From NCBI GenBank assembly GCA_016716505.1, contig JADJWF010000002.1, positions 471,597 through 535,596 on the forward strand: a stretch of 64,000 nucleotides of DNA, written 5' to 3'. The notes under the pieces were generated by a model that saw nothing but the letters and a program-made list of their open reading frames with translations, ran no database searches and had not been told where the DNA came from. Position numbers and translations under genes: made by a program. Shown one piece after another: positions 3,938-51,725 of the stretch. This DNA comes from Verrucomicrobiota bacterium. Its GTDB lineage: Bacteria; Verrucomicrobiota; Verrucomicrobiia; Limisphaerales; J093. Within the stretch, counting starts at the first letter, position 1. The number at the start of each line of letters is the position of its first letter.

Positions 3938-6271
3938 ATGAACGCTCACTTTTCCTCCCTCGCAGTCCTTCTCATCGCGATGCCGGTCGCGCACGCCGCT
4001 GAGCTGCACGTCGCCCCTTCGGGCAGCGACGCCAATCCCGGCAGCCGCCGCGCGCCGTTTCGAACGATTCAGCGGGCTGCCGAGGCCGCGCAACCGGGCG
4101 ACGTGGTGACCGTTCACGCCGGCACCTACCGCGAGCGGATTAATCCACCCCGCGGCGGCCTTTCTGACCGCCGGCGCATTGTTTATCAGGCCGCCCGGGG
4201 CGAGCGCGTGGAGATCAAAGGATCGGAGGTTGTGACCGGCTGGACTCGCGTACAGGACGACGTCTGGCAGGTCACGTTGCCGAACTCCTTCTTCGGCAGC
4301 TTCAATCCTTACACCAACGTGATCCGCGGGGACTGGTTCAATCCCTTGGGGCGCGTTCACCACACTGGCGCGGTGTATCTGGACGGTGAGTGGCTGACGG
4401 AGGCGGCCAGTCTCGATGAAATCATGCTGCCGGCCGGCCAAAAACCCGCCTGGGTGGGCGGCGGCAGCGAGGACTATTTGCTGAACGTCGCGTGGTTCCG
4501 ACCGGGGCCGGCTTCTGCCAATCGTGACCGCATTCCGGCCGCCCGATTCTCGGCCCAGCACGGGGTTCAGTCCGCTCCGAGTTCCGAGGGTGGCGACTGT
4601 CTGGGCTGGATCAACGCGGGCGACTGGGTTCGCTATGAAAACGTGGACTTCGGGGCCGGCACCTCGGAAGTGGAACTGCGGGTCGCCTCCGCCGCAGCGG
4701 GCGGCGTCATCGAGTTGCGGCACAATTCGCCGGACGGCGAGTTGCTGGGCGCCGCGACCGTCCGGCACACCGGCGATTGGCAGGCCTGGACCTCAGTGAC
4801 CGCGCCGATCAAGAGCGTCAGCGGCACCCAAACCCTCTGTCTCGTCTTCCGGGGCGGGGCCACGACGCAGCGCAATCCGGCCATCAATCCGAATCTTTGG
4901 TTTGCCAAGGTGGAGGGTGGCCAGACGACTCTCTGGGCCCAGTTCCCGGGCGTGAATCCCAACGATCGGCTGGTCGAGATCAACGCGCGGCAGTCGGTCT
5001 TTTATCCGGACCAGCCGGGCCGCAACTTCATCACCGTGCGCGGCTTCATTCTCCGGCACGCCGCCACGCCCTGGGCGCCGCCCACCGCCGAGCAGATTGG
5101 CCTGATCGGCACGCACTGGAGCAAGGGCTGGATCATCGAGAGCAACATCGTCAGCCACTCGGTTTGCACGGGAATCACGCTCGGCAAGCACGGTGATGAG
5201 TTTGACAACACCTCCGCCGACACCGCCGAGGGGTACGTGAAGACCATCGAACGCGCCCATGCCTTTCGCATCCCGTGGACGCGGGAGCACATCGGCCACC
5301 ACATTGTGCGCGGCAACACCATTTCCCACTGTGAGCAGGCCGGCATCGTGGGCAGCCTCGGTCCGGCGTTCAGCCTCGTGGAGGGGAATGTCATCCACGA
5401 CATCCACGTGCGCCGCCTTTTCACGGGGGCCGAGATGGCGGGCATCAAGTTCCACGCCGCGATTGACACCGTGATCCGCCAGAACCGCATCTTCCGCACG
5501 AACATGGGGCTGTGGCTGGACTGGATGGCCCAGGGCACGCGCGTGTCGCGCAACCTCTTTTATGACAACGCCGGCCAGGACCTTTTCGTCGAGGTCAATC
5601 ACGGCCCGTTCGTCGTGGACAACAACCTCTTCCTGTCACCCACCTCAATCCTCGACATGTCCGAAGGCGGGGCGTACGTCCACAACCTCTTCGCCGGCAA
5701 GATCACCAACCGCCCCGAACCGTCGCGCGACACGCCGTACCACCCGCCCCACAGCACGGTGGTGGCCGGGCTCGCGAAAACCACGGGGGGAGACAACCGC
5801 TTCTTCAACAACCTTTTCATCGGCACCGGGGAATCCCCGACCATCGGCCAGCGGGGTAATCTTAAAGAACTCCGGTGGATCAGCAGTCACGGCCTGTGGG
5901 GCTACGACGGCCGGGAGTTTCCAACACTCGCGGCCGGCAACGTGTACTACTACGGCGCGGAGCCCGCGGCCCAGGAGGTCAGCCCGCTGGTTCGCCGTGA
6001 GCACAATCCCGCGCCGCAATTGAGCGAGGACCACGACCGCGTGACCTTGCGGCTCACGCTGGACGACGCGATCGTCCAGGCGCGAACCGTCCGCGTGGAC
6101 ACCGCGCGGCTCGGCAAAACCAAGGTCGCCAATCTGCCCTACGTGAACGCAGATGGTTCGCCTCTCGTGGTGGACCGGGACTATCGCGGCCGACGCCGAA
6201 GCAATTTGAAGCCAACACCGGGGCCGTTTGCGAAGGTGCCATCCGGACCGACCGCGGTGCGCGTGTGGTGA
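3938..6271 (+). CDS. Secreted right-handed beta-helix protein with DUF1565-like N-terminus and an internal CBM6-like module
   Basis: The ATG at 3938 gives a signal peptide (MNAHFSSLAVLLIAMPVAHAAE) followed by LHVAPSGSDANPGS...TIQRAAEAAQPGDVVTVHAGTY. The CBM6-like block is GWINAGDWVRYENVDFGAGTSEVELRVAS...TGDWQAWTSVTA. Parallel beta-helix repeat motifs follow. Codons from 3650 upstream are Arg-rich and overlap the LOG gene in antisense. Confidence 0.75.
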   Translation: MNAHFSSLAVLLIAMPVAHAAELHVAPSGSDANPGSRRAPFRTIQRAAEAAQPGDVVTVHAGTYRERINPPRGGLSDRRRIVYQAARGERVEIKGSEVVTGWTRVQDDVWQVTLPNSFFGSFNPYTNVIRGDWFNPLGRVHHTGAVYLDGEWLTEAASLDEIMLPAGQKPAWVGGGSEDYLLNVAWFRPGPASANRDRIPAARFSAQHGVQSAPSSEGGDCLGWINAGDWVRYENVDFGAGTSEVELRVASAAAGGVIELRHNSPDGELLGAATVRHTGDWQAWTSVTAPIKSVSGTQTLCLVFRGGATTQRNPAINPNLWFAKVEGGQTTLWAQFPGVNPNDRLVEINARQSVFYPDQPGRNFITVRGFILRHAATPWAPPTAEQIGLIGTHWSKGWIIESNIVSHSVCTGITLGKHGDEFDNTSADTAEGYVKTIERAHAFRIPWTREHIGHHIVRGNTISHCEQAGIVGSLGPAFSLVEGNVIHDIHVRRLFTGAEMAGIKFHAAIDTVIRQNRIFRTNMGLWLDWMAQGTRVSRNLFYDNAGQDLFVEVNHGPFVVDNNLFLSPTSILDMSEGGAYVHNLFAGKITNRPEPSRDTPYHPPHSTVVAGLAKTTGGDNRFFNNLFIGTGESPTIGQRGNLKELRWISSHGLWGYDGREFPTLAAGNVYYYGAEPAAQEVSPLVRREHNPAPQLSEDHDRVTLRLTLDDAIVQARTVRVDTARLGKTKVANLPYVNADGSPLVVDRDYRGRRRSNLKPTPGPFAKVPSGPTAVRVW

Positions 6272-39877: not shown

Positions 39878-40112
39878 GATGGCCGCAGGTTAAGCGCCGC
39901 CCCGCCTGAAGCAAGCCGGAGCGGCCGTCAACGCGCCGGGAAAGCTGAAGAGGGAGGGGCCGGCGGACGGTTGAAGCCCATCCCGTGGCAGGCACCAGTT
40001 CTGCGCCGCCGCGGCCACCATTCGCTGGCCCAAAAGCGTCCTCCGCCGGTGGTAGCGAGCGGCATGGTTTCTCCGCTTGTTCGCTCCGCGGCATCGGCCT
40101 ACGCTGCTGACC

Positions 40113-40182
40113 GGCAATGGAGTTTGCCGTCTGGCTCGTCCAGAAAACCGCCTGAATCGTTTTCAGCGCTGATGACTCCTGC
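40113..40182 (+). promoter_or_regulatory. Fluoride riboswitch (crcB motif), variant with an inserted hairpin
   Basis: GGCAA-TGGAGT-TTGCC (P1 enclosing the 5' pseudoknot strand), an extra hairpin TCTGG-CTCGT-CCAGA, AAACCGCC, a P3 hairpin, then GCGCTGATGACTCCTGC. ACTCC pairs with GGAGT. The conserved AAAC..GCC and CUGAUGAnUCCU blocks are present. It lies 146 nt upstream of a DUF190 gene. Confidence 0.75.
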
Positions 40183-40327
40183 CGAACTGCGGAAGCTGAT
40201 CGGTGGCGAAGTGATGTGGAGTCAGCTCCAGACCGGGCGGCCGAACGCGCAGGCAAGCGCGTCCGAAGCCCTCGCTTTCCACGCCACGGGTTGGCGTTGA
40301 GGCGAATGTTCCCGAACCCATCCGTTT

Positions 40328-40687
40328 ATGCATCTCCCCCATGAAGCCATGCTGCTGCGGATTTTCCTTGGCGAATCCGACCGCTGGCAGCACCGCCCGC
40401 TCTACGAAGCCATCGTCCTCAAGGCGCGCGAGGCGCACCTGGCCGGCGCCACCGTGCTGCGCGGACCGATGGGCTTCGGCAAATCCAGCCGGCTCCACAC
40501 GGCGAAAATCCTCCGCCTCTCGATGGACCTGCCCCTGGTCATCGAAATCGTGGACACCGAGGAGAAGATCCAGGCTTTCCTGCCTGTGCTGGACGAAATG
40601 ATGCAGGGCGGTTTGGTCACGCTGGAAAAGGTGAAGGTGATTGACTACCGCGCCGGCCCGGAGGCCGAGGCCTCGCCGGAAATCTGA
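40328..40687 (+). CDS. DUF190 (PII-like, COG1993) protein
   Basis: 119 aa. LRIFLGESDRWQHRPLYEAIVLKAREAHLAGATVLRGPMGFG is the typical DUF190 core. Confidence 0.8.
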   Translation: MHLPHEAMLLRIFLGESDRWQHRPLYEAIVLKAREAHLAGATVLRGPMGFGKSSRLHTAKILRLSMDLPLVIEIVDTEEKIQAFLPVLDEMMQGGLVTLEKVKVIDYRAGPEAEASPEI

Positions 40688-40699
40688 ACCCGCCCGATC

Positions 40700-41914
40700 A
40701 TGGACAACATCTGGTTCATCGCCGCGTTTTGGATGGGGCTGGCGCTGCTGGCCAGCTTGATCTCCATCCGGCTGGGCATCTCGGTCGCCTTGATCGAGAT
40801 ACTCGTGGGCGTGGTGGTCGGCAATCTGCATGGCCCGGGCCAGGCGCCGCTCCTGCACACGACCGAATGGACCAACTTCCTGGCGATGCTCGGCAGCGGC
40901 GTGCTGACGTTTCTGGCCGGGGCGGAAATTGACCCCGCCTCGCTCAAGGCCAACCTGCGAGCCAGCATGACCATCGGGGTCGTCTCATTTTTGCTGCCGT
41001 TTCTGGGCGTGTGGTTCTTTGCGCAATACGTCCTGCACTGGCCGTTGCACCAGGCCTGGATCGCGGGCATCGCGCTGTCCACCACCAGCGTGGCGGTGGT
41101 CTATGCGGTGATGATCGAAGGCGGGTTGGGCAGCACGCCGCTGGGCAAAACGCTGCTGGCCGCCTGCTTCATCACCGACTTCGGCACGGTGCTGGCGCTG
41201 GGCGTCCTGTTCGCCGACTTCAACCTCTGGCTCATCGTCTTCGTCGGCGTGTCGGCGGTGCTGCTCTGGTTCATGCCGCGCTGGACGCGCTTCATCATCA
41301 CCCGGCTGGGCGCGACGCGCGTGAGCGAGCCGGAGGTGAAGTTCCTCTTCCTGGTCTTGTTCTTCCTCGGCGGGTTGGCGTCCACCGCCAAGAGTGAGGC
41401 CGTGCTGCCGGCCTATCTGCTGGGCCTCGTCGTCGCCGGCGTGTTTCTGCGCGACAAGACCCTCGTGCATCGGATGCGTTCCATCGCCTTCGCCATCTTC
41501 ACGCCGTTCTACTTCATTAAGGCGGGCCTGTTTGTCTCGCTGCCGGCGCTGTGGTCCGCCCTGGGCGTCATCGCGCTGCTGCTGGCGATGAAACTGGCGA
41601 CCAAGTATGTCGGCGTCTGGCCGCTCTCACGCGTGTTCTGGATGCGGTCGCGCGAGGCGAATTACACCGCGCTGCTGATGTCCACCGGGCTGACCTTTGG
41701 CACCATCTCCGCCCTGTTCGGCCTGCAAAACCAGATTATCAGTCAGGAGCAGTACTCCGTGCTGGTGACGGTCGTCATCCTGAGCGCGTTCGTACCGACG
41801 CTGATCGCCCAAAAGTTTTTCCAGCCGACCCTGCGGACGATGAACGCGTGGGGCCGACTCTACCAACGCAAGGTCAACGGCAAATCCACTGCCCCACCGA
41901 CCATCGGAAAGTGA
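40700..41914 (+). CDS. Cation:proton antiporter (CPA2/Kef-type Na+/H+ exchanger family)
   Basis: 404-aa polytopic protein with a sodium/hydrogen-exchanger-family layout (GISVALIEILVGVVVGN, FLAGAEID). Confidence 0.85.
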   Translation: MDNIWFIAAFWMGLALLASLISIRLGISVALIEILVGVVVGNLHGPGQAPLLHTTEWTNFLAMLGSGVLTFLAGAEIDPASLKANLRASMTIGVVSFLLPFLGVWFFAQYVLHWPLHQAWIAGIALSTTSVAVVYAVMIEGGLGSTPLGKTLLAACFITDFGTVLALGVLFADFNLWLIVFVGVSAVLLWFMPRWTRFIITRLGATRVSEPEVKFLFLVLFFLGGLASTAKSEAVLPAYLLGLVVAGVFLRDKTLVHRMRSIAFAIFTPFYFIKAGLFVSLPALWSALGVIALLLAMKLATKYVGVWPLSRVFWMRSREANYTALLMSTGLTFGTISALFGLQNQIISQEQYSVLVTVVILSAFVPTLIAQKFFQPTLRTMNAWGRLYQRKVNGKSTAPPTIGK

Positions 41915-41921
41915 GGCCATC

Positions 41922-42347
41922 ATGTTTCAGAAAATACTTGTCGGTTACGACGGCTCGAAAGGCGGGCGCGCCGCGCTTGAGCGCGCCGCGGCGCTCGCCC
42001 GCGAAGGCAACGCGCAACTGACCGCCATCTGGGTCCGCCAACCCCTGCCCCGACACGCCGACCTGCCCGGCGAACCAGAAGGTGAGGAGGAAGCGGCACA
42101 CGACTACTTCGCGGAGCGCAAACGCGAAGTCGAGGAGGTGGCCAAACGGTTTGGTGTCCCCATCACCTGCGAGAGCAAGGCCGGCCACGCCGCCAAGGTC
42201 ATCGTCAACTTCGCCAAGGAAAAGGGCTTTGACCTCATCGTCGTCGGCCACAGCGATCATTCCGAACTCTGGGGCCGCCTGCTCGGCGACACCGCCGACC
42301 GCATCAGCGATCACGCCCATTGCAGCGTGCTGATTGTGAAGGCGTGA
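41922..42347 (+). CDS. Universal stress protein (UspA family)
   Basis: 141 aa: MFQKILVGYDGS...DLIVVGHSDHSELWGRLLGDTADRISDHAHCSVLIV. Confidence 0.85.
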   Translation: MFQKILVGYDGSKGGRAALERAAALAREGNAQLTAIWVRQPLPRHADLPGEPEGEEEAAHDYFAERKREVEEVAKRFGVPITCESKAGHAAKVIVNFAKEKGFDLIVVGHSDHSELWGRLLGDTADRISDHAHCSVLIVKA

Positions 42348-42419
42348 ACCGGCCTGCCCGGGTCGCCCAAGGCAAGCTTCGCCATTTGCCATCGGCTGCT
42401 CCAAGGCCAGCAGCACGTC

Positions 42420-43011
42420 GGGCTGGGCCTCGTTGCTGATCGTAGATCAAGCGTTCCGGAACACAGCGAGCGAGGCCTCGCGAGCCAGATCGGGGCGGCC
42501 AGCGTGGGTGAGATGCTGCCCCCTTAACCCGCGAGATCATGTTCATCGCGCGCCACCTCGCCGGCACCCGGAGCGGACGCCGCGCCCGGGCGAAGTCTCC
42601 CAGCTCGCCCAGCGGCTGATGCAACACCTCGGCGTACAGGAAGACCAGCGCGTTCAACGCCTGATTCTGCGTCGAGGCGGACACCCGGCCTGCGGTGGCC
42701 AAATGGGTCAGAAACGCCGTGACCTCGGCTGCCCCCATCTCCCGGGGGTGCCGCCACGCCTCCGGCCCGGCGATTCCCGGCCGCTTGTGGAATCGCAAGT
42801 ACCGCACGATCCACTGCCAGTACGCCTCCTCCGTGCGCTGCGAGTAATGGAAGAAGCGCATCACCTCGTGGACCTGCTCCCGCAACGAAGCCCTGGGATT
42901 GGGTTGCAGCCGGCCCAGGGGCCGCTGTCGCGCTGGTGGCGTGCTAGGCGACAAAAAATCGGGCGAGGCTGGCGAATTCAACGGCTTGACAGGCAGTTGA
43001 GAAACCTTCAC
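42420..43011 (-). pseudogene. intI: Integron-integrase-like tyrosine recombinase, N-terminal fragment (frame lost, catalytic domain absent)
   Basis: LREQVHEVMRFFHYSQRTEEAYWQWIVRYLRFH...AAEVTAFLTHLATAGRVSASTQNQALNALVFLYAEVLHQPLGELGDFARARRPLRVP matches the pattern of IntI N-terminal SAM-like domains. After RRPLRVP the expected VVL..EV..L.G continues only in another frame (GAGEVARDEHDLAG, then stop). No R-H-R-Y catalytic domain follows. The maximal ORF (to 42304) runs into the usp 3' end. Confidence 0.7.
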
Positions 43012-43087
43012 CCTGCGTAATCATCGATATAGTCACAACCGTTGAAATGCAACTGTCGCTCACTTAACTGATGGGCGAAGAGAAACT

Positions 43088-43450
43088 ATGCCAAATCGCA
43101 GACTCACTGACAAAGAGCTTCAAGATTTGTTTCGCCCGTTATACGAGCAGGTGACCGGGCGTATGCAGGAGTTGAGTCGTGGCGCTTCGGATTTGCTTTG
43201 GGCACTCCGCCGCAAGCTGGCCAAGAGTTTGGTGTACGACGAGCGGGGCACTCCGATGCACCGTCGCCGCATCAAGACGCTCAAGCGTGCAGAGCAGCAG
43301 GGACTTTGTGCCATTTGCCGCGAGCCTTTGCCCGAACGTGGCGCAGTGCTGGATCGTTTGGAGGCTATGCAGGGGTACACACTCGCCAATACTCGCTTGC
43401 TTTGCCGTGAGTGTGATGAGCGAGTACAGGCGGAGCGGAAGTACACATGA
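43088..43450 (+). CDS. Small HNH-like zinc-ribbon protein (catalytic His replaced)
   Basis: 120 aa. The C-terminal CAICREPLPERGAVLDRLEAMQGYTLANTRLLCRECDERV follows the CxxC...DH...N...CxxC(H) HNH layout but has DR and D at the His positions. It sits in a lower-GC context and is the first ORF after the intI remnant. Confidence 0.5.
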   Translation: MPNRRLTDKELQDLFRPLYEQVTGRMQELSRGASDLLWALRRKLAKSLVYDERGTPMHRRRIKTLKRAEQQGLCAICREPLPERGAVLDRLEAMQGYTLANTRLLCRECDERVQAERKYT

Positions 43451-43476
43451 GCATTGCCGCGCCCATCCATGCAGTC

Positions 43477-43565
43477 GAGCGAACCGCGAGCCAGCCGACC
43501 GGCTCGCTTGGTAAAGGCGGCGTCAGGGGCGGCTGGCTCGCGGTCGCTCACTTTTTACGTTAGCC
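43477..43565 (+). repeat. attC-like partial site / terminator hairpin (site 1)
   Basis: GAGCGAACCGCGAGCCAGCCG (43477-43497) pairs with CGGCTGGCTCGCGGTCGCTC (43530-43549), with one extra A in the 5' arm. This is followed by ACTTTTTAC and GTTAGCC (43559-43565). I found no RYYYAAC-like box on the 5' side. Confidence 0.4.
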
Positions 43566-43615
43566 CGTGACGTCGCGGGCGAGTCGAACACGCACAGCAA
43601 CCAGAAACGCCCACC

Positions 43616-44311
43616 ATGAAAACAACCGTCAGAACCACGAAAGGAATCGCAGTCGCAATCACGGCGCTGGCGTTGGCCAGCGCGAGCGTCACTCAACTCC
43701 AAAAACACTCCGAACCGGGCACGTATTATTCGGCCAAGGATTTCGAGTGGAGTCCCCCGTGGCCGTTCCACCCGCATCCAGAACTCGATGCGGTCGAGAT
43801 CGAGCCGGGCATTTTCGTCTTTGACGACACGACCATCCCAGACACGCCGCAGCAGGCTGAGGCACGCAAGCGGCACGAGCAGGCGGCGGCGCACGCCGCC
43901 GCCATCGCGGCTGACCCCGTCCTTGCCGCAGCAGCGCGACAAACAGCCGAGGAAGCCGCGCGTCAGGCCGAGGCGAAATGGCAAGAGAAGAAGGCCGCGC
44001 TTGCGCCACAGATACGGGCACTGATTCCGCCCGGACAAGCGACCAGCGAGCAAAAGCAGCAAGATGGCGAAGCGGAATTCGCAGCACTGCGTGAGCAGGC
44101 GGTGCGCTCCGCAGCGGAACAGCCAGCCAAGGAGCGCGCACTCGACGAACTGGCCAAGCGGCTCGGCGTGCCGCGCGAGATTCAGGAATCAGATGGGCGG
44201 ACGTTGATTCTGACGGACGAAATTGCTGGTTCACCGGCCTACCTGAGCAGCCACAACACGGTGGCGGCGGCGGGCATCAGCGCGGACGAGTTGTGGCCGC
44301 TCGGTGCCTGA
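43616..44311 (+). CDS. N-terminal segment (signal peptide, Ala/Gln-rich linker, pre-catalytic region) of an S8 peptidase, ended by an in-frame TGA
   Basis: Signal peptide MKTTVRTTKGIAVAITALALASA. The C-terminal NTVAAAGISADELWP is the segment that normally precedes the Asp box of subtilases. It is in the same frame as the following ORF. Confidence 0.7.
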   Translation: MKTTVRTTKGIAVAITALALASASVTQLQKHSEPGTYYSAKDFEWSPPWPFHPHPELDAVEIEPGIFVFDDTTIPDTPQQAEARKRHEQAAAHAAAIAADPVLAAAARQTAEEAARQAEAKWQEKKAALAPQIRALIPPGQATSEQKQQDGEAEFAALREQAVRSAAEQPAKERALDELAKRLGVPREIQESDGRTLILTDEIAGSPAYLSSHNTVAAAGISADELWPLGA

Positions 44312-44368
44312 CCTAATTCGGACAGCAACACGGGGCGGAATCTGACCGGCACAAATGTCACGCTGGCC

Positions 44369-46219
44369 TTGTGGGAGAATGACGGCGGGGTACGCACCAA
44401 CCACATGGAGTTTGGCACGCGGGTGCGGCAACGGGACAACGCAGCCGTGGACGCCACCGGCCACGCCACGGCCGTGGCTGGGACCATGGCGGCGGGCGGG
44501 GTGGGCAGCATCTTCGGTCAGTTTTACGAGGCGCGCGGCGTGGCATATCAAGCGCGCGTGTTTGCTTACGACTTGGGGAATTTCAAGAGCGAGCGCGAGT
44601 CGGCGGCGGCAGGCGACGCGACTAACGCGCCGGTGTTTCTGGGTAACCATTCGTGGGGGTTGGCGAACGGCTGGCGGCGGCACCAGACGATCACCAATCA
44701 GTTTGGCGCGGTCGTGACCAACGCTTGGGTTTGGTGGGGACCACCCGAAGCCAGTTTTCCCGAAGACCCAAAGTTCGGTCTTTATACCCGCACCAACATT
44801 CAGGATACCGGCTGCGTTCAAATTGACCAGTTTCATTACGCGGAGGCGCTGCGCCATTTGATGGTCTATTCATGCGGAAATGACCGTTTCGAAGGTCCGG
44901 GCACATCCCCGGGCACCTACTACTGGTTGAGCAACGGCGTTTTTGTTGCCAGCACGGTCACCCGCGACTGGCAGGACGGCGACGACGGCGGTTACGATTC
45001 ACTTTCCGCACCGGGCAACGCCAAGAACGTGTTGACGGTGGGCGCGTGCGAGGATGTCTTTTGGATCAGCAACACGTTCCTCTATTTCGGCATCGGGCCA
45101 GGAGCCAATGCGGTTCCAGCCCCTTTCAGCGGGGCCGGCCCGACCGATGACGGGCAGCTCAAGCCCGACCTAGTTGCCGTCGGCACGCCCAATCTCTGGT
45201 TGCGCGACTTGATGGGCCAGGTCAGCGGCACGAACATCCTGGGGTTGATCTCTCCCACGGTTGTGGCCACCAATCTCGGTGCGACCAACTTCTACGCCGT
45301 CACTGCTCGCTGCACGAGCTTTGCCGCGCCCGGCGTGGTGGGCGGGCTGGGCTTGGTGTTGCAGGGGCGGGCGCAACTGTATCCGCTGTTGACCAACGCT
45401 ACGGATGCGTGGCTGAACTCGACACTCAAGGCGGTAGCAATTGACACGGTGGATGACGTGGGCGCGGAAGGGCCGGATTATCGGTTGGGGCATGGGATTT
45501 TCAACGCCCGGCGTGCGGTGGAGCGCGTGGAACAGGACTACACATGGGGCCGTGGCTCGCTCATCAGAGAGTTCACGCTCTCGCCGACGCAATCGGTTTC
45601 GTGGGTCGTGACCGCCAGCGGCACGAAGCCGCTGTCCGTGACAGTAGCGTGGAGTGACCCGCCGGGGCCGGCCATCACCAACGTCGCGGCGGCGGACATG
45701 CCCAATCCAATGCTGGTCAACAATCTGGACGTGGTTGTGGAGCGACTTTCGGACAGCACCTTGTTCCGCCCGTGGGTTCTGAATCCCGATCTGACGAACA
45801 AGATGGCCAACGCCCGTTCGGCTGCGGCGACCCGCGGGGTGGACAACCGGAACAACGTCGAGCGAGTTTCGATTGCCACACCGTCAGCGGGTGAGTATCG
45901 CATCACCGTGACGCACTCCGGCGGGCTGCCGGGGAATCCCGCACCCAGCATGCAGAAGGTCTCAGTGGTTTCGGGCGGGGTGACGCCGCCAGCGCCGGTC
46001 ATCACCGCGTTGGAGAAATCACCCAGCACGAATGAGTTCCTGCTGACATTTGTGGCGGACCCCGGCGCTTATTTCACAATCTTGACCTCCACCAATGTTG
46101 CCACGCCTCTGTCCAACTGGACGAGCGCGGTTTCGGCGCTGGCCCAGAGCGTCACCAACACGGTGGTGTTGACCAGCAGTGCTGAGCATCGCTTCTGGGC
46201 GCTACGGCGCGGACAATGA
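44369..46219 (+). CDS. S8 (subtilisin-family) serine peptidase catalytic portion; the frame is open from 44312
   Basis: Asp box LALWENDGGVRTNHMEF, His box GHATAVAGTMAAGG and Ser box TSFAAPGVVGG, followed by beta-sandwich C-terminal domains. The TTG at 44369 is only the first listed start. Codons 44312-44368 are open and homologous (NLTGTNVTLA). Confidence 0.8.
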   Translation: MWENDGGVRTNHMEFGTRVRQRDNAAVDATGHATAVAGTMAAGGVGSIFGQFYEARGVAYQARVFAYDLGNFKSERESAAAGDATNAPVFLGNHSWGLANGWRRHQTITNQFGAVVTNAWVWWGPPEASFPEDPKFGLYTRTNIQDTGCVQIDQFHYAEALRHLMVYSCGNDRFEGPGTSPGTYYWLSNGVFVASTVTRDWQDGDDGGYDSLSAPGNAKNVLTVGACEDVFWISNTFLYFGIGPGANAVPAPFSGAGPTDDGQLKPDLVAVGTPNLWLRDLMGQVSGTNILGLISPTVVATNLGATNFYAVTARCTSFAAPGVVGGLGLVLQGRAQLYPLLTNATDAWLNSTLKAVAIDTVDDVGAEGPDYRLGHGIFNARRAVERVEQDYTWGRGSLIREFTLSPTQSVSWVVTASGTKPLSVTVAWSDPPGPAITNVAAADMPNPMLVNNLDVVVERLSDSTLFRPWVLNPDLTNKMANARSAAATRGVDNRNNVERVSIATPSAGEYRITVTHSGGLPGNPAPSMQKVSVVSGGVTPPAPVITALEKSPSTNEFLLTFVADPGAYFTILTSTNVATPLSNWTSAVSALAQSVTNTVVLTSSAEHRFWALRRGQ

Positions 46220-46902
46220 GCACTCGATGGCTCAACTGGCTGCTGCTGGCAGCCGGGCTGCTCGGCCCGGCTGCCTCAGCGGCACTGGCACAAGGCACCA
46301 TCATTACGACAGTTCTACCGTCTCCTTTAGGGATCTGGAGTCCCCTGAATACCCTGCTTTGGCCGATTGATCTGAATGGTGATGGACTGGAGGATTTCAC
46401 ATTCGCCGCCGACTACTCCGGAGTGGGACTGCGCACCGAGCGGGCGAATCGGGTTGTAGTGAGGCTGTCGCCGCCTCCGAACATTGGGGGACGGGTTGCC
46501 AAACTGGACGATGGATTTGAGGTTGGGTCTTCACTTGATCCGCAATTGGCATGGCTGTCCAGCGATCCAGTGGGCGGCTACGTTTCGCCGGGGGAATGGG
46601 CGTTTGCCAGCATTGCAATTGCTGTAAGCACTGGCGAATCCAGCGATTGGCCGAGCATTCCAGGGGCACGTGGTTTCATCGGCATTCAGTTCGAGCTAGC
46701 CGATGGGTTTCACTTTGGGTATCTCGATGTTCACATGGTGGCGGAAGGAGGAGGCGTGCTATTCGGCTGGGCCTACAATACGATCCCGAACGCCCCGATC
46801 ATCGCCAGTCCGGTGCCGGAGCCGTCCACTTGGGCGCTTGTGGTCGGAGGAGGAGTGGTGGTGGTGTGGTTCAGACGAAAGAGGAATGAAAGGAGGGGCT
46901 AA
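46216..46902 (+). CDS. PEP-CTERM sorting-domain protein
   Basis: Signal peptide plus the C-terminal VPEPSTWALVVGGGVVVVWFRRKR motif. ATGA overlap with the S8 peptidase stop. The stop codon TAA lies inside the GGCTAAC box. Confidence 0.85.
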   Translation: MSTRWLNWLLLAAGLLGPAASAALAQGTIITTVLPSPLGIWSPLNTLLWPIDLNGDGLEDFTFAADYSGVGLRTERANRVVVRLSPPPNIGGRVAKLDDGFEVGSSLDPQLAWLSSDPVGGYVSPGEWAFASIAIAVSTGESSDWPSIPGARGFIGIQFELADGFHFGYLDVHMVAEGGGVLFGWAYNTIPNAPIIASPVPEPSTWALVVGGGVVVVWFRRKRNERRG

Positions 46903-47034
46903 CCAGATCACTGGAGCGAACAGCCGCCCCGCTTCGCAGTTCGAGAGTCGCGGGCTTCGGCGAGACGTTCTGGTCGTCGAGAGTCACGGGCGTTAGCACG
47001 GCGGGGCGGCTGTCGCTCAGTTCTGGCGTTAGCC
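46897..47034 (+). repeat. attC-like site 2 (138 bp)
   Basis: GGCTAAC-CAGATCACTG-GAGCGAACAGCCGCCCCGC ... GCGGGGCGGCTGTCGCTC-AGTTCTGGC-GTTAGCC. The arms are complementary apart from extra bases (TC, G, A) in the 5' arm. The boxes match RYYYAAC and GTTRRRY with one mismatch each. The next ORF's ATG lies 3 nt after the box. Confidence 0.6.
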
Positions 47035-47036
47035 CT

Positions 47037-47765
47037 ATGAGAAACTGCATCCTGTCCCTCGCCGCATTCCTTCAAGCGTCGGTTTGTTTTGGCCAGGGGT
47101 CGCTTTACTCGTTCTCTGGGAACGTGAGCAGCCTCTTCTACGACGGTGGTGGCATTCTGGCGGCGCAGAATGTCACCGTCGGAGATCCTGTATCCGCCAG
47201 TTACATCGTTGATTTTGGAGCGCCAGGGTTCTACCGGCTCAACGATGGAACTGTTGATGTACCCGCCGACCCACCGTTGGGCAACGTGCATACGACGTAT
47301 TTCTACTGCCGTTTGGCCTCAGGCACGCTGCTGCCTGAAGCCAATGGAGGGCTGAATAATCGCCCCCAAGACGTGGCTGAGTACTTCACGGGCTGGAACC
47401 AGAGCAGTCCGATGGGAAATGAGGGGTTGTTGTGGGGAGGCACCGGTGATTCCTACTTCACCGTCCGGAAATCGAGCTTCACGAGCGAAAGCCAAGTGCA
47501 GGAATGGCAGGTCGGAACGGAGGTGCGTGGCGTCATTGTCGCTTACAGCGATCAGGATTGGTCTATAGCTTGGGCAGACATGCGGTTGGATTCCATTACG
47601 CCGGTGCCGGAGCCGAGCATCTTGGCGTTGCTTTGCATGGGCAGTGCGGCGTGTTTCGTGTGGAGTCGGCGAGGGGCTAACAAACCGGATGCACCGAACC
47701 CGGCAATAGCGCCTCAGTTTCACATCGGTCACCACTGGCGCCGGGTCGGTGATCCGGGTCGGTGA
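47037..47765 (+). CDS. PEP-CTERM sorting-domain protein with a read-through tail
   Basis: Signal peptide MRNCILSLAAFLQASVCFGQG. The PEP-CTERM motif is PVPEPSILALLCMGSAACFVWSRRG. About 30 further codons follow, translated from the attC-like repeat. Confidence 0.8.
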   Translation: MRNCILSLAAFLQASVCFGQGSLYSFSGNVSSLFYDGGGILAAQNVTVGDPVSASYIVDFGAPGFYRLNDGTVDVPADPPLGNVHTTYFYCRLASGTLLPEANGGLNNRPQDVAEYFTGWNQSSPMGNEGLLWGGTGDSYFTVRKSSFTSESQVQEWQVGTEVRGVIVAYSDQDWSIAWADMRLDSITPVPEPSILALLCMGSAACFVWSRRGANKPDAPNPAIAPQFHIGHHWRRVGDPGR

Positions 47766-47780
47766 TCCGGGTCGTTGGAC
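47675..47780 (+). repeat. attC-like site 3 (106 bp) containing a 13-bp tandem duplication
   Basis: GGCTAAC-AAA-CCGGATGCACCGAACCCGGC ... GCCGGGTCGGTGATCCGG-GTC-GTTGGAC. The 5' arm has extra G and A. GTTGGAC fits GTTRRRY exactly. GGGTCGGTGATCC is repeated in tandem (47743-47755 and 47756-47768). Confidence 0.55.
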
Positions 47781-47896
47781 GGGGCACGCGCCGGCGCGGG
47801 CGTACAGCCGCCGCCGGCCGGTGGCCACCGCCTCCGGCGCGCGGACGGCGGCCGGCGACCCGGGACACCCGCGCCCCGGCGTTCGTTTTCCCGGAA

Positions 47897-48137
47897 GACC
47901 GTTCGCTGCATGGCATCTTCACAGTGGCCAGCAACGTGGACAAGGGGTGTGATGACTGGTACCAGAGGGAGATGCACCACTGCTACGATGCTGGCGAACT
48001 GCGCCCGCCCGTCAGCGGCGAGAAGCGAGTGGTGCGCGGTGGCACCAGTTGGGGACGGCAGAAGCTATGGTTTCGCTGCGCGCGCGCCGCGGCCCCGCAC
48101 CCAACTCAGCAGCGCGCCCTGGGCCTTTTACGACCGC
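47897..48137 (+). pseudogene. Degenerate C-terminal fragment of an FGE-sulfatase (SUMF1-like) domain
   Basis: SLHGIFTVASNVDKGCDDWY...PVSGEKRVVRGGTSWGRQKLWFRCARA echoes the GLHDMHGNVVEWC...RGGSF...FR tail of the intact FGE gene at 31586-33745. It lacks everything upstream of that tail. Confidence 0.4.
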
Positions 48138-48651
48138 CCAGCGGACCGCGTACCATCTGCAAGCGGCGTCACGCTCGACCCCGGGACGTCGCGCTTGAAG
48201 GCCGCGAACCCGAAGCGCCCCCCGTGCGGGTCGCGTTTGCGTTCGACGCTGCATTCGCCACCGTCGGCTGGCTGATCCCGGTGACCGCCTTCCGCGACCC
48301 GATCGAGCGCGTGCTCCTCCGCAAAGCGCGTTACGAGGTGGAGAAAAACCTCTCCCGCCTTGCCGCCGACTGGCGCGACCGGGTTACCGTGGTCATCGAA
48401 GAGTTGAGGCGACAAACCGAGCAGGCCGCCCAGAGCGAACTGGACTCGCTCGAGAACCTGCTGAACCAAACCGCGTCCACCGTGCCACGCCTCCGCGATC
48501 AAATCGCCGCATTGGAAGCCACCGCAGGCGATCCGACCCTCCCTCAATCTTGAGGGACGACGGGGTTCCCCGCCGCCGTTCAACCGGGACGCCGCCGTGC
48601 CGGCCGCGATCGCTTCTTGACGATCGTCGGGGCAAGGCGTAGCACGCCGCC

Positions 48652-51649: not shown

Positions 51650-51725
51650 TGGTAGCGCGTATGGGAATCGAACCCATCTTTCAGCCTTGAGAGGGCCGTG
51701 TCCTAAACCGATAGACGAACGCGCC
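51650..51725 (-). tRNA. tRNA-Glu (anticodon CUC)
   Basis: Hand-folded 76-nt cloverleaf: acceptor GGCGCGT/ACGCGCT (with G1-U72), D arm GTCT-ATCGGTTTA-GGAC, anticodon arm CGGCC-CTCTCAA-GGCTG, T arm ATGGG-TTCGATT-CCCAT, discriminator A and an encoded CCA. Confidence 0.82.

Follow-up and report, generated by a model that had tools for sequence, protein, structure and literature searches.

The present locus can be compared with the sedentary chromosomal integrons, whose attC sites include VCR2 of Vibrio cholerae (133 bp; PMC5027507), and with the mobile class 1 integrons, with sites such as attCaadA7. In the description of the folded attC site by Nivina et al. (2016; PMC5027507), each arm has a spacer of 5-6 nt, and the L'' arm bears two or three extra bases that end with a conserved bottom-strand T at position 23/24, a 6-bp stem separating the first from the last. 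On the bottom strand, G is the usual base for the first of them (position 16), none of the extra bases is essential by itself, and a bottom strand more stable than the top one is a statistical trend in mobile-integron sites and no requirement (PMC5027507). Verrucomicrobia are reported to carry integrons (PMC4889954). The present analysis deals with 64,000 nt from a Verrucomicrobiota bacterium (assembly GCA_016716505.1, contig JADJWF010000002.1, positions 471,597 to 535,596), the whole of which is called the window, and more especially with an imperfect hairpin of 138 nt at window positions 46897-47034 on the + strand, called site B, which had been put forward as attC-like from the letters alone. 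With a probability of about 0.93, this hairpin is the attC that closes, within a small integron on a Verrucomicrobia chromosome, a 3.47-kb cassette carrying an S8 peptidase gene and a PEP-CTERM partner gene. This original prediction is borne out by the end-to-end match to a covariance model built from other genomes, by the extra bases and spacers, and by the array context. The reading stands on the anatomy of the site, its membership of a family of integrase-adjacent sites, the boundaries of the cassette and the presence of the same cassette in another array. The parts of the site are as follows, bracketed bases being unpaired.

46897-47034, + strand: attC site B, 138 nt, the middle of three same-strand sites
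46897-46903, + strand: R'' box, GGCTAAC
Between R'' and L'': 5' spacer, CAGATC, 6 nt
46910-46917, + strand: L'' box, ACT[G]GAGC
After L'': G[A]AC, an 11-bp stem, a long variable loop, then GTC
47015-47021, + strand: L' box, GCTCAGT
Between L' and R': 3' spacer, TCTGGC, 6 nt
47028-47034, + strand: R' box, GTTAGCC
Between G47028 and T47029, top strand: crossover point

The arms of site B, GGCTAAC...ACAGCCGCCCCGC from 46897 and GCGGGGCGGCTGT...GTTAGCC up to 47034, are complementary save for unpaired bases, as had been described, and the inner 13 bp of the stem, ACAGCCGCCCCGC/GCGGGGCGGCTGT, pair perfectly. R'' and R' are fully complementary to each other and contain the AAC/GTT triplets, each box being one mismatch away from its consensus (RYYYAAC for R'', GTTRRRY for R'), and L'' and L' form 7/7 pairs plus one unpaired base, which appears as a single-base bulge in the bottom-strand fold. 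Two single extra bases are found on the 5' arm, a G at 46913 (or 46914) and an A at 46919/46920, the latter being site position 23 or 24 and a T on the bottom strand; with the G at site position 17 (46913) and the A at 24 (46920), 6 pairable bases lie between them. Site B thus has the published spacer length, the two extra bases 6 bp apart and the bottom-strand T at 23/24 (PMC5027507). The original prediction had listed the extra bases as TC, G, A and GC, a listing that does not hold and is best replaced by a 6-nt spacer in each arm plus the single G and A on the 5' arm. The single-strand folding it had proposed as a check gives what is expected of an attC site, the R''-L'' arm showing extra bases separated by 6 bp, with spacers of 6 nt. 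The folding energies for single-stranded DNA are -46.4 kcal/mol for the top strand (z -5.95) and -41.8 kcal/mol for the bottom one (z -5.5), values that 0/200 shuffles attain.

The 15-nt direct repeat TCGAGAGTCGCGGGC / TCGAGAGTCACGGGC is present in the loop as described, at 46941-46955 and 46977-46991. Part of it, CGGGCG, recurs in the loops of related 126-nt sites in two other loci, L010 and L044. The TAA stop of the PEP-CTERM open reading frame (ORF) 46216-46902 lies at 46900-46902, inside GGCTAAC, again as had been noticed. The following ORF starts with an ATG at 47037, 2 nt beyond the end of R' at 47034 and not 3 nt after that box as had been claimed, and the intergenic gap holding the site measures 134 nt.

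Set beside the VCR-type sites, site B is alike in its length (138 nt) and its R'', L'', L' and R' boxes, in its 5-6-nt spacers, in the extra bases on the R''-L'' arm and in its large variable terminal structure, and the window is alike in presenting a chromosomal same-orientation array by intI and attI, with cassettes devoid of resistance genes. The first extra base is a bottom-strand G in VCR-type sites but a C in site B, and there are three extra bases in the former against two in the latter; besides, the spacer of site B is partly self-complementary, the three sites of the window are not near-identical, and the array counts only three cassettes next to a degraded integrase. With class 1 attC sites, site B shares box order and register, extra bases at about 16/17 and 23/24 as counted from the first base of R'', the 6-bp stem between them, the crossover between G and TT, and a stop codon inside R'', as is often the case there. 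Class 1 sites are 57-70 nt long with a tiny loop, whereas site B is 138 nt long, and no sequence similarity is seen between them beyond the consensus boxes; the class 1 hosts are Proteobacteria, whereas the host of site B belongs to Verrucomicrobia, with no transposon or plasmid context as far as the window shows.

Sites of this kind were searched for with a structural grammar. Its outer part consists of an R'' box RYYYAAC (at most 1 mismatch) with a 5-6-nt spacer and, on the other arm, a 5-7-nt spacer between L' and an R' box GTTRRRY (at most 1 mismatch); an 8-nt L'' pairs with a 7-nt L' save for one extra base after the third position, and further in come 1-3 more pairs, a second extra base and then at least 7/8 pairs. 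Over both strands of the window, only site B and its two sister sites, A and C, were returned, all on the + strand, and 40 randomised windows gave 0 matches. Plain-sequence searches for the stem or the R' box of site B elsewhere in the 64-kb window returned nothing beyond chance. Sites A, B and C are related by structure and not by sequence. The comparison covered 80 loci with relatives of the integrase fragment found at the head of the array, one genome per species and with the integrase oriented +, plus 3 more loci from protein look-ups. Applied to 1.0 Mb around related integrases, the grammar returned 69 sites on the cassette (-) strand, located upstream of the integrases with cassette-like spacing, against 4 on the + strand.

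Since three full-length sites were misaligned by MAFFT, arm-only versions of the sites of other genomes were aligned instead, and a first covariance model, R1, was built from 41 non-redundant sites of other genomes with their loops trimmed. On the window, R1 gave 29.6 bits for site C and a weak score for site A and missed site B, likely because 138 nt exceeds the maximum match length of this model, which gave about 50-60 bits to sites no longer than 129 nt. In the related loci, R1 found 128 sites, of which 119 are on the - strand, every one of these located upstream of the match to the integrase. The nine matches on the + strand include seven that make up a single array in L065 (2748-10253), downstream of the integrase on the same strand, the orientation of the L065 integrase being inverted relative to all other loci. 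A second model, R2, was derived from these 128 sites, taken at full length and all from other genomes, with no sequence of the window among them. Run over the whole window with filters off, R2 matches site B end to end on the + strand with its top score (56.4 bits, E 6e-12), and the covariance-model scoring that had been proposed thus comes out in favour of attC; sites C (51.7 bits) and A (51.5 bits, E 1e-10) are also matched end to end on the + strand. Next in score come C and B on their reverse strands (13-14 bits); for site B this amounts to 56.4 bits on the + strand vs 13 bits on the - strand. In the alignment of the 128 sites, which was fitted to the model and so leans towards structure, paired cells make up 93% vs about 30% in slid controls, and compensatory changes are seen in 15/15 pairs of the L box and inner stem. 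The first unpaired base is a top-strand G (bottom C) in 88 of these related sites and a top-strand C in 28, and the second is a top-strand A in 125/128.

The element was also to be searched for behind different genes, and it is indeed found there. By blastp, the 116 ORFs that immediately precede family sites make up 112 families, and in 36 of these ORFs the stop codon ends 6 nt into the site, inside R'', exactly as in site B. Sites that share 67% identity with site B along its entire length stand behind other genes in L010 and L044. Above all, window 43540-47035 aligns to positions 1254-4746 of L084, a 7-kb metagenomic contig, with 85.6% identity over 3514 nt. This alignment starts in the R' region of the preceding attC and stops at GTTAG of the R' box of the copy of site B, both flanks in L084 being unlike the window and occupied by other cassettes, with seven R2 matches of 52-67 bits along the contig. 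Homology that ends at the R' boxes, next to other neighbours, indicates that the 3.47-kb unit is a discrete cassette present in two arrays. The L084 copy of site B (4608-4745) is likewise 138 nt long, about 90% identical, and keeps both copies of the 15-nt repeat. As for the "second GTTAGC(A)" of the original prediction, the motif does exist (GCGTTAGCAC at 46990-46999) but the significance given to it does not stand, as L084 has GTCATTAC where the window has GTTAGCAC, and the motif is thus incidental.

The PEP-CTERM protein of the cassette (228 amino acids) has many homologues, which in the 3/3 loci looked up come right after an S8 peptidase gene of 809-935 amino acids. In L086-L088 (6687-6760, on a 150-kb contig), the S8 and PEP-CTERM pair is followed by only the 5' half of site B; in L086 the homology reaches window 46962 and gives way to a convergent gene, one attC-like match (35 bits) being located 3 kb upstream. 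The arrangement is suggestive of a chromosomally fixed cassette whose attC is broken. A 1.44-kb insert interrupts a B-like attC in L089 (6686-8288) and, at identical coordinates, in L090. There, some 17 nt of R'' and spacer follow the PEP-CTERM gene, then comes the insert, and then a near-complete site 83% identical to window 46897-47023 in L089. A 411-amino-acid ORF in the L089 insert gave no match in Pfam; the insert may be an element targeting attC sites.

In the window, the array reads as an intI remnant on the - strand, attI, and then three + strand cassettes, each ended by its own attC (A, B and C), with the integrase remnant and attI sitting 3.9 kb upstream of site B. Its components are as follows.

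42559-43011, - strand: intI remnant, N-terminal SAM-like domain only (PF13495, TIGR02249)
42986-43024, + strand (into the array): candidate cassette promoter Pc, a conserved box plus a weak promoter-scan match
43046-43076, + strand: attI, AATGCAACTGTCGCTCACTTAACTG followed by ATGGGC, with the crossover between G43070 and A43071
43071-43559, + strand: cassette 1, 489 nt, with ORF 43088-43450 (120 amino acids) and attC A
43461-43565, + strand: attC site A, 105 nt, found by the grammar scan and model R2
43560-47028, + strand: cassette 2, 3469 nt, with the S8 peptidase gene, the overlapping PEP-CTERM gene and attC B
43616-46219, + strand: S8 peptidase gene (PF00082), with an in-frame TGA at 44309-44311
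46216-46902, + strand: gene of the PEP-CTERM protein of 228 amino acids (PF07589), overlapping the S8 gene
47029-47774, + strand: cassette 3, 746 nt, with PEP-CTERM ORF 47037-47765 (PF07589, 4e-6) and attC C
47675-47780, + strand: attC site C, 106 nt, the last of the array, found by the grammar scan and models R2 and R1

Site A is laid out as R'' GCCCATC, then CATGC, L'' AGT[C]GAGC, G[A]AC … GTC, L' GCTCACT, TTTTAC and R' GTTAGCC, and site C as R'' GGCTAAC, then AAACCG, L'' GAT[G]CACC, G[A]AC … GTC, L' GGTGATC, CGGGTC and R' GTTGGAC. In the bottom-strand fold of site A, a T and a G bulge out as single bases; the first extra base of that strand is the usual G in site A and a C in sites B and C. 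In integron arrays, each R' box contributes its TTRRRY part to the cassette that comes next, from which it follows that the R'' box of a cassette should match the R' remnant at its own 5' end. This is the case for 3/3 cassettes. The R'' box of site A, GCCCATC, is the exact complement of GATGGGC at 43070-43076, with the crossover after the G, where cassette 1 starts, and matches poorly the GTTAGCC that follows it, and the R'' boxes GGCTAAC of B and C are complementary to the GTTAGCC sequences, also split after the G, at the starts of cassettes 2 and 3. In cassette 1, whose boundaries rest on the positions of the attI crossover and of the site A R' box, both halves of the R box (43461-43467 and 43070-43076) have ATC in place of the AAC crossover triplet, the middle A of which is invariant in about 123 related sites. 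This complementary change in two halves 390 nt apart suggests that the cassette was inserted with the non-canonical triplet.

The ORF of cassette 1 has no Pfam or NCBIfam match. In cassette 2, the in-frame TGA at 44309-44311 separates two same-frame ORFs of the S8 peptidase (43616-44311 and 44369-46219), the homologues of which in L084, L086 and L089 are unbroken (809-935 amino acids); it reflects either a pseudogene or a sequencing error. The R2 scan of the window gave no attC-like match inside this cassette, and the distance from A to B is 3.3 kb. The ORF of cassette 3 has no stop in R'', where its frame reads GGG GCT AAC (GGC TAA in site B), and extends 30 codons into site C up to a stop at 47765. 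The 3' arm of site C contains a 13-nt tandem duplication of GGTCGGTGATCCG at 47744-47769. The GC content is 58-62% across the cassettes (43071-47774) vs about 66% in both flanks, rising from 58% to about 70% just right of site C.

As for the integrase, ORF 42304-43011 on the - strand matches PF13495 (6e-28), the N-terminal SAM-like domain of phage-type integrases, and the NCBIfam integron integrase TIGR02249 (4e-27), the latter with no more than positions 3-100 of the 315 in the profile. Full-length IntI proteins of related loci align to it only via residues ~11-145, the alignment stopping at window 42559, so that the recognisable part amounts to residues ~1-145 of about 350. An intact intI would encode a tyrosine-recombinase catalytic domain and the extra segment peculiar to IntI; the remnant has no match to PF00589, and tblastn with ten IntI-region ORFs from related loci (199-394 amino acids, most of them full length) and two frameshifted close relatives detected nothing significant of the missing catalytic domain past 42559. 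A faint "RGVRS" match in another frame was considered as a trace of this domain and judged to be chance. No second intI or integrase-like sequence occurs in the 64-kb window, and an intact universal-stress-protein gene abuts the remnant. A protein identical to the remnant over the shared part is annotated in a Verrucomicrobia metagenome-assembled genome. The closest relatives are degenerate as well, P0012 (93% identical) and P0022 (83%) being frameshifted or internally deleted; the integrase of L001 (P0002; L001 10001-10426) ends at the same RVPA codon as the window remnant and is followed by different DNA, and in L004, from the same metagenome-assembled genome as L001, the frame is intact and runs well past that codon.

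A sequence matching attI, ending in AATGCAACTGTCGCTCACTTAAATG before the crossover and TTAGAC after it, is found at equal distance from intI in L001, L004 and L006, looser versions occur in L008, L011 and L024, and the similarity of related loci to the window attI ends at the crossover base G43070. A TTGACA box (42986-42991), some 80 nt left of the attI sequence, coincides, in the alignment of upstream regions, with a TTGACA or TGGACA box of related loci, and a promoter scan gave one weak consensus match, TTGAGA-16-AATCAT, at 42997-43024; from these sequence features, the region is a putative cassette promoter Pc.

IntegronFinder identifies integrases by PF00589 together with its own IntI C-terminal profile (PMC4889954), neither of which is found in the remnant of the window, and the 3.3 kb between A and B falls below the 4-kb clustering limit; the locus would presumably be called a three-site CALIN, that is a cluster of attC sites without integrase. 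Unlike a plain CALIN, the array keeps an N-terminal integrase remnant and an intact attI; its origin is visible, and it amounts to a complete integron that has decayed. As the pseudogene search in the same study was made with C-terminal profiles (PMC4889954), an N-terminal remnant of this kind would be missed, and such remnants beside CALINs would escape searches relying on those profiles.

Several points weigh against taking site B for an attC. The grammar, which was the seed of the covariance model, was written after sites A, B and C had been seen; the position and orientation of the model hits relative to integrase genes provide an independent validation of the model. In the predicted folds, the top strand of site B is the more stable one by 4.6 kcal/mol, contrary to the trend in mobile-integron sites, and the first extra base is a bottom-strand C (top G) instead of the usual G, which, as the source calls G merely "usual" and no extra base essential, makes it a variant feature and no disqualifier. 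Besides, CAGA and TCTG can pair, that is 4/6 spacer bases in each arm, and the minimum-energy folds do pair them, leaving a small asymmetric loop, so that a central spacer of fitting length (6 and 6) which ought to be unpaired is predicted to be mostly paired. The adjacent integrase is a remnant without its catalytic two-thirds and, lastly, the 3.47-kb cassette exceeds the ~2 kb quoted as the largest known (PMC4889954). Could the hairpin then be a transcription terminator, or a regulatory stem-loop of the mRNA, between two PEP-CTERM genes and conserved for that pair? The hairpin is strong and GC-rich, it occupies the gap between the two genes, and the ATG so close behind the stem means that folded RNA could affect translation as a side effect. 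Such an effect of folding on translation is a side effect of attC sites themselves. No T-run follows 47034, the loop is about 68 nt long, the terminator scan is silent at B, and Rfam has no match at site B, either at gathering thresholds or at E <= 1. Nor is the element tied to one gene pair, a condition that the original prediction had itself raised, as the family sites follow 112 unrelated ORF families and the gene downstream differs between the window and L084 where the site and the cassette upstream are the same; termination has no use for asymmetric extra bases or conserved GTT/AAC boxes, and the model is strongly strand-specific (56 vs 13 bits). A terminator or regulatory stem-loop is therefore very improbable. 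The terminator scan flagged only the T-rich spacer of site A.

Still less credible is a dispersed repetitive extragenic palindrome or miniature inverted-repeat element with no tie to integrons, which the intergenic position of an imperfect palindrome of ~140 nt and the existence of related sequences in other genomes might bring to mind. Neither by sequence nor by model does the 64-kb window contain a copy outside the three-site array, there are no target-site duplications, the breakpoints of homology fall between G and TT and not at the palindrome ends, and, in related genomes, 119/128 family members share a single orientation, directly upstream of the gene for an integron integrase. Of a different nature is the proposal that site B is an attC by descent, now an immobile fossil in a decaying array, which is a statement on present activity and not on a different identity, and to which we would give slightly less than an even chance. 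In its favour can be counted the lost catalytic domain, the stop in the S8 peptidase gene, the 13-nt duplication in site C and the ORF running into that site, the truncated or frameshifted state of the close relatives of the integrase, and the survival of only the 5' half of a B-type site in L086. On the other side, the pairing and spacing of site B are all intact, it is the best-scoring site of the window, and an integrase encoded elsewhere in the genome, of which a 64-kb window of one contig was examined, could act in trans.

As an attC, site B would work along the lines of the established integron model. Its bottom strand, once single-stranded, would fold into the hairpin, of which an integron integrase would bind the paired R box (GGCTAAC/GTTAGCC) and L box (ACTGGAGC/GCTCAGT), the correct strand being presumably recognised by the unpaired bottom-strand C and T, 6 bp apart. 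The bottom strand would then be cut in the AAC triplet, corresponding on the top strand to the point between G47028 and T47029; recombination with another attC would excise the cassette as a circle, and recombination with attI would re-insert it behind the promoter. Site B is probably still recombinable. As the local integrase has no catalytic domain, movement at the present day would need an integrase encoded elsewhere. With this loss, the TGA in the S8 gene and the 13-nt duplication in site C, the locus has the appearance of an integron in decay.

Site B is a clear but ordinary example of a known integron system with minor variant features, and the current picture of how integrons work is left unchanged by it. 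It does illustrate that the reading of raw sequence can pick out a real attC site, and it documents a decayed chromosomal integron in a phylum whose integrons are known but little described. The occurrence in two arrays of a 3.5-kb cassette with two genes, a protease and its PEP-CTERM partner, indicates that integrons can move small operons, and the sites of this clade prefer a different base at the first unpaired position. One may go further and speculate that the integrases of this clade, mostly Verrucomicrobial, read a slightly different attC code than those of Vibrio or class 1 integrons and move multi-gene 3.5-kb PEP-CTERM modules; the bottom-strand C in about 70% of the sites, the conserved 15-nt loop repeat and the ATC of cassette 1 point that way, yet we regard this as rather unlikely. 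If so, such integrons would move 3.5-kb modules for exported PEP-CTERM proteins, above the usual cassette size.

A few other features of the window deserve mention. Right at the edge of the array, an ORF at 47762-48553 weakly matches part of an FGE-sulfatase domain, under the cutoff (E 6e-4, positions 155-238 of the 255 in the profile), and may be a gene truncated there. On the left, Rfam identifies a fluoride riboswitch (43.6 bits) at 40104-40188 on the + strand, directly ahead of ORFs 40328-40687 and 40700-41914, and on the right, at 3.9 kb from the array, a tRNA gene at 51653-51725 on the - strand.

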